A stretch of 64,000 nt of DNA, from NCBI GenBank assembly GCA_024790105.1, contig GCA_024790105.1_3053.1; one strand, given 5' to 3'. How positions within the stretch are numbered: position 1 is the first letter of the stretch; the number at the start of each line of letters is the position of its first letter. Made by a program: the position numbers and the translations under genes. This stretch comes from a phage. Below are positions 43,847 to 53,566 of this stretch, in pieces. Under the pieces are notes generated by a model. It worked only from the letters and a program-made list of their open reading frames with translations, searched no databases and was not told the DNA's origin.

Positions 43847-45047
43847 ATTTTGTAATAATGTCAAACTGTTCTTTAAAGCAGAAGCTTGAATCTTGGTGCT
43901 GATACAAAAATTCATATGCTTTTTCTCGCTCGCGGTCATAAAGAGCTCGGTCAGATGACAGTTCTTTAATACGTTCAAATGTTGATTCCATGTCATTTTC
44001 ATCAAACCAAATGATACCGCTATCATGCGAGGTCAAAGGAGTATTATCAACACGGAATTTTAAATTTTCGCCAGTAGATTTCCAAAATACCGGAATTGTT
44101 CCACATGCACCAAGCTCGAGATGAGTATATTCTAAAGAACGTTGCAGATATTTTTTATCCAACTTACTCAACTGATAACCAAAACCGGATTTACTCATGC
44201 GTTCAAGCATTTCGCTATTTACATAACGGTCAAGAATTTGCGTTGGCAAATTAGGAGCAATTTTAATTTGGTCTACTTGATGAAGACGATAATACTCGTA
44301 TGGAATTCCCTTTTCTTTAATAGGAATGAACGCTGGAGAACGTTCCAGACCTTCCATAATAGTACTTAGTCCTGCAGGTTTAAGATGTTTTTCGTGAAAA
44401 TCAAACATCTGATAAAAGCCTTTCCATGTAGTAGTACGACCAATCCAACGGTTGATATTCATGTTAATTTCAGAAACATCTTTCCAATAGGTTGATCGAA
44501 CCTTCGCAATATCCATAGGAGGCTGGAAGTTATATACGGTCGGTGCTTCTTCAATATCATCAAACAGAGAAACTGTTTCTGGATACCATTCTTTCATTAA
44601 AACTTTATTAAAATCACCATTATCAGAATGACTAAAAATAACATCAGCTCGACGAACAGTTTCTTCTAATCCCAAATTTCGGCGCAAAGAAAGAGAAGAA
44701 TGGTCATGCTGATAAACTACAACACGAACCGAAGGTTTAATGTTATCAATAATTTTTTTATAGTTATTGATGGTGTCTTCTTCAACCGAAGTAGCAGGAA
44801 CTGAATTGATAATTAGAATATCACAATCATTTACCAGCTTAAGTGTTTTATCATATTCTTTTGCCAATAAAACCGGAATTGAAAATGATTTATAATCATG
44901 CGCGCAATTACGAGTAAATGATTTATCTTTAGCATAAACCAAAGTTACTTCATGACCATTTTTAATAAACCAATCACGTTGCTCGAGTGAGAATTTTGTT
45001 ACACCACAACCTTCAAGACCTCGAGCCAGAAAAATGCATACTTTCAT
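43845..45047 (-). CDS. a-gt: DNA alpha-glucosyltransferase
   Basis: 400 aa; ATG 45047 with GAGGATATTA SD; recognised sequence. Confidence 0.9.
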   Translation of the reverse strand: MKVCIFLARGLEGCGVTKFSLEQRDWFIKNGHEVTLVYAKDKSFTRNCAHDYKSFSIPVLLAKEYDKTLKLVNDCDILIINSVPATSVEEDTINNYKKIIDNIKPSVRVVVYQHDHSSLSLRRNLGLEETVRRADVIFSHSDNGDFNKVLMKEWYPETVSLFDDIEEAPTVYNFQPPMDIAKVRSTYWKDVSEINMNINRWIGRTTTWKGFYQMFDFHEKHLKPAGLSTIMEGLERSPAFIPIKEKGIPYEYYRLHQVDQIKIAPNLPTQILDRYVNSEMLERMSKSGFGYQLSKLDKKYLQRSLEYTHLELGACGTIPVFWKSTGENLKFRVDNTPLTSHDSGIIWFDENDMESTFERIKELSSDRALYDREREKAYEFLYQHQDSSFCFKEQFDIITK

Positions 45048-45077
45048 TTAATATCCTCATTGTTTTGGTTTATTTTA

Positions 45078-45118
45078 CCAAAAAAATTATAAAGCAATAT
45101 AGGAGCCGAAGCTCCTAT
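45078..45118 (-). terminator. rho-independent terminator
   Basis: ATAGGAGC-cgaa-GCTCCTAT hairpin followed by U-run on minus strand. Confidence 0.55.
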
Positions 45119-45288
45119 CCACATAATACGCCATACAGAGGCTCGTTAGAACTTTTAAATTTTATGCGCTTATATGTTATAGTTCCTTCTGCTTTAGCTT
45201 TATCATGAGACTCTTTAAAGCGTCTCATCATTTCTACTTTAGAGGAACGAATTTTATTATAATCTATTTCAGAAGTCTGGGTGTTCAT
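45115..45288 (-). CDS. small ORF (57 aa)
   Basis: ATG 45288; stop lies inside terminator hairpin. Confidence 0.4.
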   Translation of the reverse strand: MNTQTSEIDYNKIRSSKVEMMRRFKESHDKAKAEGTITYKRIKFKSSNEPLYGVLCG

Positions 45289-45291
45289 CTT

Positions 45292-45495
45292 TCACAGTTG
45301 CCACCATTTTTTGACTTGATAAGAATCAACCCACACTTTCATATTAGGGTCTGCTCTTACAATAGGAGGATTAACTTCTTTAATTGAACTATCATGGTAT
45401 TCTTTTTCAGAAATTTTCACACAAAGATGACCATTCAAAGATTCAGTAAATCCTGCATTAATTTTAAGACGCTTGAATTTTACGTGTGTAAGCAT
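45292..45495 (-). CDS. hypothetical protein (67 aa)
   Basis: ATG 45495 with GAGGATATGATTG SD. Confidence 0.5.
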   Translation of the reverse strand: MLTHVKFKRLKINAGFTESLNGHLCVKISEKEYHDSSIKEVNPPIVRADPNMKVWVDSYQVKKWWQL

Positions 45496-45781
45496 CAATC
45501 ATATCCTCAATTTGCGATCTAGTAGTCTTCCAAAGAATACTGATGAGTTCATCGTTATATGGCTGTTTTAGAATATCCCGACTTTTCTTGATAGCATATT
45601 CGTATTGAGCAAAATTATTGTTTTCAGCTGCAATCTGAGCGTGCTTATAAAGACGATTCAGTTCGCGTTTGTTTTTAGACAATAACTTATTTGCTTTTCT
45701 TTCTGCTTCAAGACGGTTCTTTTCTTCAATAGAAGAAATAAGCTTTTCCACTTCATCATTAATTTCGGGTTTATCAGTCAT
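45464..45781 (-). CDS. hypothetical protein (105 aa)
   Basis: ATG 45781 with AGAGAAATAAT SD. Confidence 0.6.
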   Translation of the reverse strand: MTDKPEINDEVEKLISSIEEKNRLEAERKANKLLSKNKRELNRLYKHAQIAAENNNFAQYEYAIKKSRDILKQPYNDELISILWKTTRSQIEDMIDAYTRKIQAS

Positions 45782-45782
45782 A

Positions 45783-46001
45783 TTATTTCTCTAATATAAA
45801 ATAAAAATCATCATCTGTTAAATGATACCGATAGTTTAATTCTACACCATTAGATTTAAAAGCGGTATCATACGGATTTTCTGGATCAATATCAATGTCA
45901 AGAGCTAAAACTTCCCTGAGATACATTTTAAGTAAATAGGGAATAGCTTCAACTTCAGGTATTTCTTCCAAGAATCCGGAGAGGTTAATCGTTAGCCTCA
46001 T
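45783..46001 (-). CDS. hypothetical protein (72 aa)
   Basis: ATG 46001; overlaps gene 55 3' end. Confidence 0.55.
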
Positions 46002-50703: not shown

Positions 50704-53566
50704 CTATGCATGTTTTACTCGTTTTACCATTTCTTTCATTTTACCTAAATTCCATGGGACAACGCTAGGAGTTCCAAGATATCCGCATGTTCTTCTTATT
50801 GTGTTCATCTTTTTAGGATCAGTTTCTCCACAAATAGAACAAACAAATCCGTTTTCAGTAGGAGTCATTTCATGGGTACTTCCACATGTAAAACATTTAT
50901 CTACTGGCATGTTAACACCAAAATAATCTAAATGTTGTACAGCATAATCCCATACAGCCTCAAGACCTTTTAGGTTATTTTTCATATCAGGAAGTTCAAC
51001 ATAAGAAATGTGACCACCTGTCGCAATGAAATGATATGGCGCTTCACGAGAAATCTTTTCAAACGGAGTAATATTTTCTTCTACTGAAACATGGAAACTG
51101 TTAGTGTACCAGCCTTTATCGGTAACATCCTTTACACTTCCATATTTTTCTGTATCAAGTTTACAGAAGCGATAACAAAGGTTTTCAGCAGGAGTCGAAT
51201 ATAAACTAAAAGCAAATCCAGTTCTTTCAGTCCACTGTTTAAGATGAGCATTCATTTTAGTTAAAATTTCCTGTCCAATATCACGACCGACAAGAATATT
51301 CAATTCATGAATACCAATGTATCCTAGGGACACTGAACTTCTACCATTTTTAAATAACTCAATTATATCGTCATCAGGTTTAAGACGAACCCCGAATGCA
51401 CCTTCTTGGTAAAGAATAGGAGCAACAGTCGCTTTAACTCCTTTTAAGGAACTAATTCTACACATCAAAGCTTCAAAACACAGATCCATTCGTTCATTGA
51501 ATAATTCAGTAAATTTCTGTTCATTGAACTGTGTTCCAATATAAGAATCTAACGCAATACGAGGAAGATTCAGTGTTACAACACCAAGATTATTACGTCC
51601 ATCAAGAATTTCATTACCAGTCGAATCTTTCCATACGCTCAAGAAACTACGGCAACCCATTGGAGAAACAGGAACAGATGAACCAGTGATAGCTTTATTG
51701 TTCTTAGCTGAAATAATATCAGGATACATCCTTTTGCTTGCACACTCTAGAGCAAGCTGTTTAATATCATAGTTCGGATCGTCTTTGTAAAGATTAACGC
51801 CTTCTTCGACGAACATAACAAGCTTAGGGAAAATAGGAGTTATCCCATCACGACCGAGACCTTTAATACGATTTTTCAGAATTGCTTTCTGAATCATTCG
51901 TTCAGTCCAGTCAGTTCCTGTACCAAATGTAATTGTTACAAAAGGTGTTTGTCCGTTTGAACTGAAAAGTGTATTTACTTCATCATTATATTCAGCATGA
52001 GTCGCAAATTCATGCCCGTTTATATGAAACGACAAAATTTGGATAGTCCATAGATATGCAACGTTCTTTTATAGTGCTAGGATGAAAATTTAGCGCTTTA
52101 GCTGCTTCTATATAAGACGTATACTTAATACCGTCAACAACCACATATTCAGGAACTTTATGAATAGTAGTCTTAATACTCAAAACAAGAGGATGAGTTT
52201 CGACTTCACTTTCAGTGCAATTTAAATATTCCGCTGCTTTTTTAAAACTTCTAAAAGTTTTATTTTTAAGCTTTATCGATACTTGTTTTTTACTTTTTCG
52301 ACTATTGATATTATTTTGCACATGTTCCTTAGATCTTCTGTTTTTAGCATAATATTCAGCCACAGAAGATTTTATATTGTTTTTATGAGATTCGGATAAC
52401 ACTTTACCCTTATGAGCATCTCTTAATTTTTGAATATGTTCTTCAGTATCCGGATGCTTATAAAACTTTTTACCGCCTATGGATTTATTTAAACATTTTT
52501 TGCTATAAAAATATTTACGTATGACCTCTTCTTCATGTTTTAATGCATCTTTATAACTATCAAATGTTTTTAAAATTATCCATTTAGTAGGTGTATCAGT
52601 TTTTAAGCGTTCATTTATATACTTAGATGACGTTGTGTAAGTTTTCCAGTTTGTGGGCTTGTTTTTAACTGTTCTAAATTTTTTATAACCGATATAAATG
52701 TCGCCATTAGAAAACTTAACTAAGTATGTAAATGCGTCTTTATCTTTTATTTTAGTACAACGTCTTTTTATCCATTTCATTGTTTCACCTCGTATTCATA
52801 AGATAATCTTATTTATACAAGATGACTGCTGCATGTCGCCATGCAGATTAGACTATATCTTCATCTTTCGATGCCGGCCGTTTCGAATAGCATTAGCTTC
52901 TATTCTACACCGCTACATTCATCACGGTTAGTCGTTAGGCATTTAGTTCAAAAGAACATTTAGCACGGGATTGTCTACTAGAGAGGTTCCCCGTTTAGAC
53001 CGGTTTTACATGAGCCTGAATTAAATTAACTCATACGCCTGGAATGCATCGTATACGTCTTTTTCTGTTTTAGATTGAGCATAATTCAACGCATCAGCGA
53101 TTTGCCATTTTTCTGCATCTTCAATATGTTTTGCATAGGTGCGTTTAACATAAGGAGAAAGTACTTTATCTACATTAGCAAAAGTCGTTCCGCCGTATTG
53201 GTGAGAAGCAACCTGTGCAGTAATTTGCGCCATAATTGCAGTAGCAACGCCAATTGATTTAGGAGTTTCAATCTGCGCATTACCAAGCTTAAATCCGTTC
53301 TCAAGCATTCCTTTTAAATCTACTAAACAGCAATTAGTAAAAGGAAGAGCAGGGGAATAATCAATATCGTGCACGTGAATAATTCCGCTTTCATGCGCTT
53401 TCATAATAAAAGACGGGACCATATTTTTGGCAATGTGTTTAGACACAATACCAGCCATAAGGTCCCGTTGAGTTGGAAAAACACGAGAATCTTTATTAGC
53501 ATTCTCGTTTAAAAGGTCTTTATTAGTTTTATGAATCAATCCTTCAATTTCTTTTTCAATTGTCAT
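50704..53566 (-). CDS. nrdD: anaerobic ribonucleotide reductase NrdD, interrupted by a group I intron; inferred join(50704..51983,53029..53566)
   Basis: exon 1 ORF from ATG 53566 and exon 2 ORF ending in glycyl-radical RRTCGYLG and Zn ribbon; splice coordinates inferred from U/G boundary rule assuming a 605-aa product. Confidence 0.8.
51984..53028 (-). mobile_element. group I intron (sunY/nrdD type) with 3'-located endonuclease ORF; boundaries approximate
   Basis: ribozyme core CUAAACGGGGAACCUCUCUAGUAGACAAUCCCGUGCUAAAU...AAAUGCCUAACGACUA...GAGAUAUAGUCU...CUGCAUGGCGACAUGCAGC read at 52781-53020. Confidence 0.7.
52010..52780 (-). CDS. intron-encoded GIY-YIG-type homing endonuclease (256 aa)
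   Basis: ATG 52780 with GAGGTGAAACA SD; TYLVKFSNGDIYIGY motif and NUMOD-like repeats. Confidence 0.75.
   Translation of the reverse strand: MKWIKRRCTKIKDKDAFTYLVKFSNGDIYIGYKKFRTVKNKPTNWKTYTTSSKYINERLKTDTPTKWIILKTFDSYKDALKHEEEVIRKYFYSKKCLNKSIGGKKFYKHPDTEEHIQKLRDAHKGKVLSESHKNNIKSSVAEYYAKNRRSKEHVQNNINSRKSKKQVSIKLKNKTFRSFKKAAEYLNCTESEVETHPLVLSIKTTIHKVPEYVVVDGIKYTSYIEAAKALNFHPSTIKERCISMDYPNFVVSYKRA

Follow-up and report, generated by a model that had tools for sequence, protein, structure and literature searches.

A group I intron with an I-TevII-family endonuclease gene at the sunY position of a phage nrdD gene, diverged from the T4 intron

The group I intron in the nrdD (sunY) gene of phage T4, with its GIY-YIG homing endonuclease, has been a textbook element since the late 1980s. 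The key studies on its distribution are said to be those of Sandegren and Sjoberg (2004, JBC) and Sandegren et al. (2005, NAR), which reportedly are also the source of the nrdD sequence of phage U5. An earlier case of one site occupied, in close phages, by two diverged lineages of intron and endonuclease was reportedly provided by Goodrich-Blair and Shub in 1996 for the DNA-polymerase introns of SPO1 and SP82 (I-HmuI and I-HmuII), the difference being that those enzymes are said to be HNH nickases that cut the intron-containing DNA of the other phage. The T4 intron itself is a classic self-splicing intron (PMC2988022).

Here we describe an insertion in the nrdD gene of another, T4-like phage, located in a window of 64,000 nucleotides (NCBI GenBank assembly GCA_024790105.1). 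In this window, the minus strand carries two nrdD ORF blocks parted by an intervening sequence, as seen in the ORF list and by Pfam, and we consider it very probable that the insert is a group I intron of the phage IA2 type, mobile and self-splicing, located at the T4 nrdD (sunY) position. An earlier note, made from the sequence alone, had also proposed a group I intron in nrdD; the proposal now finds support in an Rfam RF00028 match of 70.6 bits and in an intron-less relative, MLF4, from which exactly this insert is missing. The closest deposited phage is 96-97% identical to the window over 24 kb, and none is identical.

Exons, junctions and the spliced product

The two ORF blocks, on either side of an insert at the coordinates given in the earlier note, and the exons and intron derived from them are as follows.

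53566-53021, minus strand: nrdD ORF block 1, 181 aa, Pfam NRDD model positions 1-141
52035-50704, minus strand: nrdD ORF block 2, 443 aa, NRDD model positions 145-562 plus Gly_radical
53029..53566, minus strand: nrdD exon 1, 179 codons and the first base of codon Tyr180; its last base is the splice-site U 53029
51984..53028, minus strand: complete group I intron, 1045 nt, missing to the base from intron-less MLF4
50704..51983, minus strand: nrdD exon 2, 426 codons and stop, glycyl-radical domain included
53021..53023, minus strand: UAA stop, two codons inside the intron, at which the reading frame of exon 1 ends (ORF list)

In a four-way alignment, intron-less MLF4 is collinear with the exons of the window, and the gap corresponds exactly to 53028..51984, in agreement with the earlier prediction of U 53029 as the last base of exon 1 and G 51984 as that of the intron. 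The bases at the two boundaries are unlike (exon T and intron G at one side, intron T and exon A at the other), and therefore no sliding of the junction is possible. Joining 53029 to 51983 yields 1818 nt, encoding 605 aa plus stop, which is the NrdD length that had been assumed. This product aligns with T4 NrdD (PDB 1H78) without gaps over residues 1-604, with an identical junction sequence, ...DAFQAYEYEVNTLF..., and the contiguous exon junction is present in 620 phage records. Exon 1, which is collinear with MLF4 up to 53029, is 97.8% identical to T4 exon 1, and the UAA at 53021..53023 is aligned with a stop codon in T4. Strong purifying selection acts on the two exons (dN 0.004), and the frame needed for splicing is maintained.

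The ribozyme core and the 3' end of the intron

Scanning a 1.4-kb stretch with permissive filters retrieved a match to RF00028 (Intron_gpI) at 53064-52829 on the minus strand (70.6 bits, gathering score 50 bits; E 1.5e-17) that covers model positions 1-253 of 253. A default Rfam scan of the whole window at the gathering threshold gave no match and missed the intron. The matched ribozyme portion is the 5' 200 nt of the intron, so that the core lies in the 5' part of the insert as the note had it. The following elements were read from the sequence (P1) or derived from the Rfam and structural alignments (the core).

53010..53034, minus strand: P1, exon AUGAGU (53034-53029) paired with the internal guide GCUCAU (53015-53010)
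53020-53017 with 51982-51979, minus strand: possible P10 pairing of UUCA, just 5' of the guide, with exon-2 UGAA
52829..53003, minus strand: ribozyme core
53003-52998 / 52879-52874, minus strand: P3
52994-52989 / 52970-52965, minus strand: P4
52984-52982 / 52976-52974, minus strand: P5
52964-52963 / 52940-52939, minus strand: P6
52957-52954 / 52949-52946, minus strand: P6a
52935-52929 / 52855-52850, minus strand: P7
52928-52924 / 52913-52909, minus strand: P7.1
52905-52900 / 52890-52885, minus strand: P7.2
52872-52870 / 52865-52863, minus strand: P8
52846-52840 / 52835-52829, minus strand: P9
51984..52015, minus strand: 3'-terminal element, a P9.2 hairpin (52015-52010 / 52000-51995) and then UGAAUAUAAUG, whose last base is the terminal G 51984

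At the 5' splice site P1 presents a U-G wobble (U 53029 opposite G 53015), and the final intron base, 51984, is a G. P1 is paired in 100% of cases across 7 related introns. To examine the remaining helices we used a structural alignment of the window intron with seven related phage introns (8 sequences, 60 pairs, 474 pair cells), which was helix-anchored and fitted by hand to the expected helices, so that its pair counts are biased towards structure. Standard pairs occupy 96.8% of the 474 cells in this alignment, as compared to 35-40% (about 36%) when partners were slid; both sides have changed in 29 of the 60 pairs, and none of 500 shuffles attained any of these measures. An automatic MAFFT alignment of the eight cores mis-registered P1/P2, P6a, P7.1/7.2, P8 and P9.2 and was dropped.

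The eight introns thus demonstrate a conserved, covarying RNA structure, and the comparison with MLF4 demonstrates the intron boundaries. Covariation supports the P3-P9 helices including the P3/P7 pseudoknot, with all controls far lower; P7 and P6 are invariant and therefore contribute no covariation signal of their own. The extra helices of subgroup IA (phage type) come after P7 and before the 3' strand of P3: P7.1 (5 bp) and P7.2 (6 bp) are 100% paired over the 8 sequences, with 3 doubly changed pairs apiece. P5 and P8 of the window have just 3 bp each, the fourth P5 pair being a C-U mismatch, as in td introns.

At the 3' end, the P9.2 hairpin overlaps the stop codon of the endonuclease ORF. 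The layout of this hairpin followed by UGAAYAYAWUG appears in 7 of the 8 aligned introns (the window counted), and 5 of the 6 P9.2 pairs have changed on both sides in the same alignment. A search by eye for an L7.2-L9.2 pairing that would account for selection of the 3' splice site found none that was convincing.

The endonuclease gene and its upstream region

The 3' part of the intron contains a complete ORF, preceded by a compact regulatory region.

52010..52780, minus strand: homing endonuclease ORF of the I-TevII family, 256 aa, with a GIY-YIG domain at the N-terminus and a NUMOD1 / helix-turn-helix region at the C-terminus
52785..52825, minus strand: hairpin whose 3' arm contains the Shine-Dalgarno GAGGUG (52791-52786) of the endonuclease ORF
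52810..52817, minus strand: TATAAATA, the T4 late-promoter consensus, within the 5' arm of this hairpin, which sequesters the ribosome-binding site
52785..52804, minus strand: 20-nt stretch ATCTTATGAATACGAGGTGA resembling the intron-less homing site (comparison with the MLF4 junction)

The earlier description of a full-length, 256-aa GIY-YIG-type ORF was corroborated by Pfam PF19835 (SegE_GIY-YIG), which matches residues 9-86 at 27.0 bits (cut-off 25); the motifs FTY...(10)...YIG are visible, while the generic GIY-YIG model PF01541 reaches only 10.8 bits and NCBIfam has no matching model. The ORF also matches PHROG 314 "homing endonuclease" (E 2.6e-29), and along its entire length it is collinear with T4 I-TevII (55.6% identity, E 3e-101). 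The NUMOD-like repeats that had been noticed were recovered in part: NUMOD1 exceeds its cut-off (25.1 bits versus 22.8; best stretch residues 171-193), with a second stretch appearing only at a lenient threshold, and Pfam detected no NUMOD3 in the protein. A weak helix-turn-helix match at residues 216-241 may be the same module as the second NUMOD1 stretch.

HEE (residues 82-84) and LNKSIGG (97-103) are conserved with I-TevII. A MAFFT alignment with I-TevI placed the GIY motif out of register and was too unreliable at the N-terminus to assign the catalytic Arg, Glu and Asn of the GIY-YIG fold with confidence. Between window and T4 the endonuclease ORFs show dN 0.38 and dS about 1.5 (dN/dS about 0.25). 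The ORF of the window is intact and under purifying selection.

The regulatory motifs are conserved as well, with the late promoter and the ribosome-binding-site hairpin kept as in T4. TATAAATA occurs at the same place in the aligned T4 sequence, and a near-identical copy of the motif is annotated as a T4 late promoter in phage SA20RB. The hairpin folds at -17.3 kcal/mol (z -5.15; 0 of 200 shuffles equally stable), its T4 counterpart at -15.6 kcal/mol. The stretch ATCTTATGAATACGAGGTGA matches positions -11..+8 of the MLF4 junction in 16 of 20 bases, a similarity reached by 1 of 2000 shuffles, and its 19-nt core TATGAATACGAGGTGAAAC is identical in T4, with diverged flanks. It is a putative operator or, alternatively, a putative relic of the insertion of the endonuclease gene.

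A second lineage at the sunY site

Alignment with the T4 nrdD intron (I-TevII; NC_000866, 44815-45847), which the note had suggested as a check, shows both introns inserted at the same point, between bases 1 and 2 of codon Tyr180, with 66% nucleotide identity. The two share the P1 guide GCUCAU, the lack of P2, an ORF located 3' of P9, a late promoter within the hairpin that sequesters the Shine-Dalgarno, and a P9.2 hairpin with a terminal motif ending in G. Their GIY-YIG endonucleases are nearly equal in length (256 and 258 aa). However, the introns differ in length (1045 nt in the window, 1033 nt in T4), and their identity is no more than 75% for the core, 63.5% for the ORF and 61.5% for the 3' tail, as compared to 96-98% in the exons, where several silent positions in the flanking bases differ. 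Of the 60 pairs, 40 are identical, 17 compensatory, 2 one-sided and 1 broken; the sequences of P6a, P7.2, P8 and P9.2 are unrelated between the two lineages, and upstream of the ORF 9 inserted nt give rise to an additional inner hairpin. The endonuclease genes differ with a dS of about 1.5, and the flanking exons with a dS of 0.16. Judging from these comparisons, the window element is evidently a lineage separate from that of T4, and far older than the divergence of the surrounding host genes.

At this nrdD site, the phage collection contains about 45 window-type, 25 T4-type and 620 intron-less records in a patchy distribution that speaks for mobility, and the database copies form two tight clusters with no intermediates. 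The copies of U5, RB55, RB59 and PST are at least 99.2% identical to the T4 intron, with which the window intron shares 66%; in the collection, the U5 nrdD sequence (AY262145) is T4-type at 99.7%. About 40 window-type copies are 98.8-99.6% identical in otherwise mosaic genomes, which suggests recent spread. Position -2 reads GAA in 19 of 19 intron-less alleles examined and GAG, which base pairs in P1, in all intron-bearing ones, a pattern that appears to fit co-conversion and/or selection for P1 pairing. In the literature searched, to which the Sandegren distribution papers do not belong, we found no description of a second nrdD intron lineage.

The ribozyme core itself looks mosaic, made up of pieces that other phage introns also carry, and combines td-type P4-P6, the P7.1/P7.2 of nrdD introns from unrelated coliphages, and an nrdD-type P1 and 3' end. 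The T-even td intron (I-TevI) belongs, like the window intron, to the IA2 family. Its ORF-less form in phage HMD-9 is identical to the window intron in P5 and the whole 3'-P4-P6-P6a-P6 stretch (47/47), and the td introns of T6, RB9 and many others are 100% identical to positions 30-71 of the window intron. The td intron nevertheless differs in host gene, insertion site, guide sequence, P7.1, P7.2 and P8, in having P2, and in carrying its ORF, if present, in the P6a loop rather than after P9. The nrdD introns of VB-EcoM-WM (with an HNH endonuclease) and PD114 (an ORF-less relative) share the host gene family, an identical P7.1 (20/20), a similar L7.2 loop (AAGCUNAUG) and about 80% core identity with the window, but occupy another nrdD insertion site in other phage genera, with the HNH endonuclease located within the P6a loop.

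Given these resemblances, could the insert be just the T4 intron with I-TevII? Insertion site, architecture and regulatory design are the same, but the low intron and protein identities next to near-identical exons, the separate database clusters and the wholly unlike P7.2, P6a, P8 and P9.2 refute this, and we regard it as practically precluded. Hardly more credible is an insertion that does not splice, leaving nrdD truly split or dead and NrdD produced as two fragments or not at all. Many database records do annotate two separate nrdD CDSs, but these are gene-caller artefacts; the ribozyme structure is complete and covarying, both exons are strongly purified (dN 0.004) in the frame that splicing requires, and the homologous T4 intron at the same site is the classic self-splicing one (PMC2988022).

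An unlikely alternative, although less so than these two, is that the intron splices while its endonuclease has lost its homing activity, being in decay or kept only as a repressor or maturase, with the intron now inherited vertically or moved by ordinary recombination. Sister copies of the window lineage carry ORF frameshifts (F1, FN, 236Ecol005PP) or a 568-nt internal deletion (215Ecol030PP), and thus decay does occur within the lineage; the catalytic residues are not confidently mapped, and NCBIfam gives no match. The window copy, however, is full-length, with start codon and Shine-Dalgarno, scores higher with SegE_GIY-YIG (27.0 bits) than the experimentally active T4 I-TevII (21.6 bits), and retains a dN/dS of about 0.25 across a deep divergence, and the near-identity of about 40 copies in mosaic genomes suggests recent spread.

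For the favoured reading, a mobile self-splicing intron, we infer splicing chemistry, expression timing and cleavage specificity from the homologous T4 intron as follows. Pre-mRNA would be made from promoters upstream of nrdD, and ribosomes on exon 1 would halt at the UAA two codons into the intron. The 200-nt core would then fold, with guanosine attacking after U 53029 within the P1 U-G wobble; the 3' end, about 845 nt downstream, would be returned by the P9.2 hairpin, the terminal motif and P10, and the terminal G 51984 would serve exon ligation, restoring codon Tyr180 and the 605-aa NrdD. In early transcripts the endonuclease ribosome-binding site is predicted to be locked in the hairpin, and the late promoter in the 5' arm would generate a shorter, translatable RNA. 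The I-TevII-family enzyme would cut intron-less nrdD of co-infecting phages, and repair would introduce the intron along with adjacent exon markers.

A more tentative idea, which we consider possible but rather doubtful, is that two anciently diverged intron/endonuclease lineages compete for one nrdD site in present T4-like phages, the window lineage taking part in ongoing natural domain exchange between introns. The window and T4 endonucleases might differ in specificity, or each might even act on the alleles of the other. Since the td intron of the HMD-9 type bears the P6a of the window intron and co-occurs with the window-type intron (in N2, 236Ecol005PP, GRNsp7 and SP21535), the window-type intron may have converted td introns of the same genomes into ORF-less forms.

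This kind of element has been known for long, and as it has had textbook status since the late 1980s, the finding alters no concept. In dozens of deposited genomes, genes of this kind are still wrongly annotated as two nrdD fragments by gene callers and with default Rfam filtering. The locus is of value for comparison, as a second natural version, deeply diverged, of the sunY ribozyme and of I-TevII at the identical site, in which 17 natural compensatory changes confirm the helices. The window lineage also allows the proposed operator, and the similarity upstream of the ORF ascribed to endonuclease invasion, to be tested independently, and offers a natural system for asking if two homing endonucleases with a common target compete.

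The nrdD locus and its junctions

The window comes from a T4-like (Tequatrovirus) genome, and for a 24-kb piece of it the best identity to a deposited phage was ~97% at most. The two nrdD ORF blocks lie head-to-tail on the Pfam NRDD model, and the order gene 49, nrdD, MobC-like HNH ORF is common to the window and T4.

Features of the nrdD locus
54036-53563, minus strand: gene 49 (endonuclease VII), directly before nrdD
53566-53021, minus strand: nrdD ORF block 1, Pfam NRDD model positions 1-141
53064-52829, minus strand: Rfam Intron_gpI match, 70.6 bits (gathering score 50), E 1.5e-17, whole model covered
52817-52810, minus strand: T4 late-promoter consensus TATAAATA, within the 5' arm of the Shine-Dalgarno hairpin
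52780-52010, minus strand: 256-aa endonuclease ORF; SegE_GIY-YIG 27.0 (cut-off 25), NUMOD1 25.1 (cut-off 22.8)
52035-50704, minus strand: nrdD ORF block 2, Pfam NRDD positions 145-562 plus glycyl-radical domain
50691-49852, minus strand: MobC-like HNH ORF, 279 aa; PHROG 655, E 5e-37; start 13 nt past the nrdD stop codon

Intron_gpI, between the nrdD blocks, was the single Rfam match when 1.4 kb was scanned. A default Rfam scan of the entire 64-kb window at the gathering threshold gave zero matches, so that the intron is lost to the speed filters; default Rfam filters can thus overlook a group I intron in AT-rich phage DNA when it carries a long 3' ORF.

An earlier note, made from the sequence alone, had read nrdD as split by a group I intron with junctions at 53029 and 51984, and it was right both in what it observed and in how it interpreted this. 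The intron-less phage MLF4 lacks exactly window positions 53028-51984 in a four-way alignment, and the junction cannot be shifted because the boundary bases differ. A 300-nt query joining 53029 to 51983 found an uninterrupted match in 620 phage records. The joined exons measure 1818 nt (605 codons plus stop), the protein length that the note had assumed, and NrdD residues 1-604 align gap-free to T4 NrdD in the crystal chain 1H78, the sequence at the junction being the same in both. In the alignment with the T4 nrdD intron, a check proposed in the note, T4 positions 44815-45847 are the counterpart of the window junctions; in the T4 record the nrdD CDS is annotated in two pieces that enclose I-TevII. 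Splicing of the intron, and the expression timing and cleavage specificity of its endonuclease, are what we infer from homology with T4.

The last 25 residues of NrdD (50704-50780) carry ~10 differences from T4, versus 3 in the preceding 580 residues. This divergent 3' patch adjoins the free-standing MobC-like endonuclease gene, and the glycyl-radical Gly in RRTCGYLG is kept.

Ribozyme structure and the 3' end

The ribozyme core indeed occupies the 5' part of the insert, with everything through P9 in the first 200 nt only and the 3' splice site 845 nt beyond. After ORF excision, we aligned the intron helix by helix with seven others: the T4 nrdD intron, the T6 td intron, the ORF-less td introns of phages HMD-9 and PD112, the nrdD introns of VB-EcoM-WM and PD114 (which occupy another site), and an intron in the terminase gene of Aeromonas phage 2L372X. 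For 60 proposed pairs (P1, P3, P4, P5, P6, P6a, P7, P7.1, P7.2, P8, P9 and P9.2), 96.8% of 474 cells were standard-paired, a percentage inflated by the fitting of the alignment to the expected structure; with partners slid by 1-3 columns as a control, 35-40% were paired. Both sides changed in 29/60 pairs, and any of five measures was reached by 0/500 shuffles. Against T4 alone, 40 pairs were identical, 17 compensatory, 2 one-sided and 1 unpaired, the last being the fourth P5 pair (C-U), in which the td introns are alike. Compensatory changes in P3, P4, P6a, P7.1, P7.2, P8 and P9.2 are plain in the raw sequences.

As read from the sequence, P1 forms between exon AUGAGU and guide GCUCAU and places the canonical U-G pair at the splice site, and UUCA, which directly precedes the guide, can form a candidate P10 with the UGAA opening exon 2. 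The last intron base is G, and the exon-1 frame stops two codons inside the intron, as it does in T4. A P9.2 hairpin, which overlaps the ORF stop codon and has both-side changes in 5/6 pairs, and the motif UGAAUAUAAUG directly precede the 3' splice site. Hairpin and UGAAYAYAWUG end the other aligned introns as well, except the terminase intron of 2L372X, with its uncertain 3' end. Michel et al. in 1992 reportedly found that sunY core activity requires contact with such a distant 3' element.

Relation to the T4 nrdD intron

Identity with the T4 intron itself is ruled out by the divergence of core, ORF and 3' tail between near-identical exons.

Identity to T4 by segment
Exon 1: 97.8%
Ribozyme core: 75.1%
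Endonuclease ORF: 63.5%
Intron 3' tail: 61.5%
Exon 2: 95.7%

The 256-aa ORF, which the note had called GIY-YIG-type with NUMOD-like repeats, is above the SegE_GIY-YIG and NUMOD1 cut-offs, also matches PHROG 314 'homing endonuclease', and shares 55.6% identity with I-TevII along the full length. The nrdD introns of the phage collection form two tight clusters without intermediates: a T4-type cluster (25 records, >=99.2%, including U5, RB55, RB59 and PST) and a window-type cluster (~45 records, most 98.8-99.6% identical in protein, a few frameshifted). Between window and T4, the endonuclease genes have dN 0.38 and dS ~1.5, near saturation, versus dN 0.004 and dS 0.16 for the flanking exons (Nei-Gojobori); the intron lineages therefore split long before the present host genes. 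The ORF is kept under purifying selection (dN/dS ~0.25). For T-even introns, a 'recent transfer of old introns' was reportedly proposed by Sandegren and Sjoberg in 2004, a picture that the age contrast fits. The window element is a distinct lineage of the T4 nrdD intron/I-TevII family, presumably with a like mode of working. Our literature search found no published description of the window-type lineage, which dozens of GenBank genomes carry under the generic label 'homing endonuclease' beside two nrdD fragments.

Ahead of the ORF, the Shine-Dalgarno GAGGUG is base-paired to sequence farther upstream in a hairpin of -17.3 kcal/mol (z -5.15). T4 likewise has a hairpin over the Shine-Dalgarno with a late promoter in its 5' arm; a 9-nt insertion in the window gives an added inner hairpin. 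In the T4-type design, late transcripts begin inside the hairpin, which frees the ribosome-binding site (PMC2988022). Both lineages share the 19 nt TATGAATACGAGGTGAAAC without a difference, amid diverged flanks, and the 20-mer at 52804-52785 agrees at 16/20 positions with the intron-less homing site from -11 to +8, a score equalled by 1/2000 shuffles. The site upstream of the ORF has been proposed as the endonuclease's operator (PMC2988022) and, as PMC3984707 relates it, as a relic of endonuclease gene invasion (Loizos et al. 1994). The match agrees with both ideas, as a suggestion rather than a demonstration.

The core looks mosaic, since its segments differ in their closest relatives.

Closest relatives of core segments
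P1 and guide: T4 nrdD intron, 24/29
P5 and 3'-P4-P6-P6a-P6: ORF-less td intron of HMD-9, 47/47 (T4 nrdD 32/47)
P7.1: VB-EcoM-WM nrdD intron, 20/20 (T4 nrdD 15/20)
P7.2 region: Aeromonas phage 2L372X intron, 19/24 (T4 nrdD 10/24)

Over intron positions 30-71, identity to the td introns of many T-even phages is 100%. The P6a of the HMD-9 td intron (PV287714.1, 1462-1709), GUUC-UUUU-GAAC, is identical to the P6a of the window nrdD intron, unlike the usual td P6a. HMD-9-type ORF-less td introns (96-100% identity) occur in N2, 236Ecol005PP, GRNsp7 and SP21535, each of which also holds a window-type nrdD intron; this co-occurrence suggests that within-genome gene conversion between td and nrdD introns may have removed I-TevI. 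Such shuffling between T4 introns is said to have been demonstrated experimentally by Bryk and Belfort in 1990.

Signs of mobility, decay, and nrdD as an intron target

The intron is carried by a minority of otherwise near-identical genomes. At exon position -2 (window 53030), 19/19 intron-less alleles (18 from IMG/VR and MLF4) have GAA, while in both lineages every intron-bearing allele has GAG, whose G pairs with the guide C in P1; this is the pattern expected from co-conversion together with selection for P1. None of the 19 intron-less alleles has GAG, and this sample is thus without sign of precise intron loss. The window-type intron of 215Ecol030PP (PP328843.1, 501-1277) has a clean ORF deletion from ~codon 13 to ~201, leaving 477 nt with ribozyme core and 3' tail intact, and is a natural case of endonuclease-gene loss in this lineage. 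The ORF is frameshifted in F1, FN and 236Ecol005PP.

VB-EcoM-WM (PQ014731.1, 2499-3248) has a group I intron elsewhere in nrdD, with an HNH endonuclease in the P6a loop, and in Vibrio phage F96 (OZ196197.1, 1-3700) nrdD is apparently in at least 4 pieces, and two HNH ORFs are present. Introns have nrdD as a recurrent target. Most deposited genomes with the window-type intron (e.g., MK327933, KR269718, MT682709) list nrdD as two CDSs, and several name the endonuclease 'hypothetical protein'; the two-CDS entries are a systematic annotation error.
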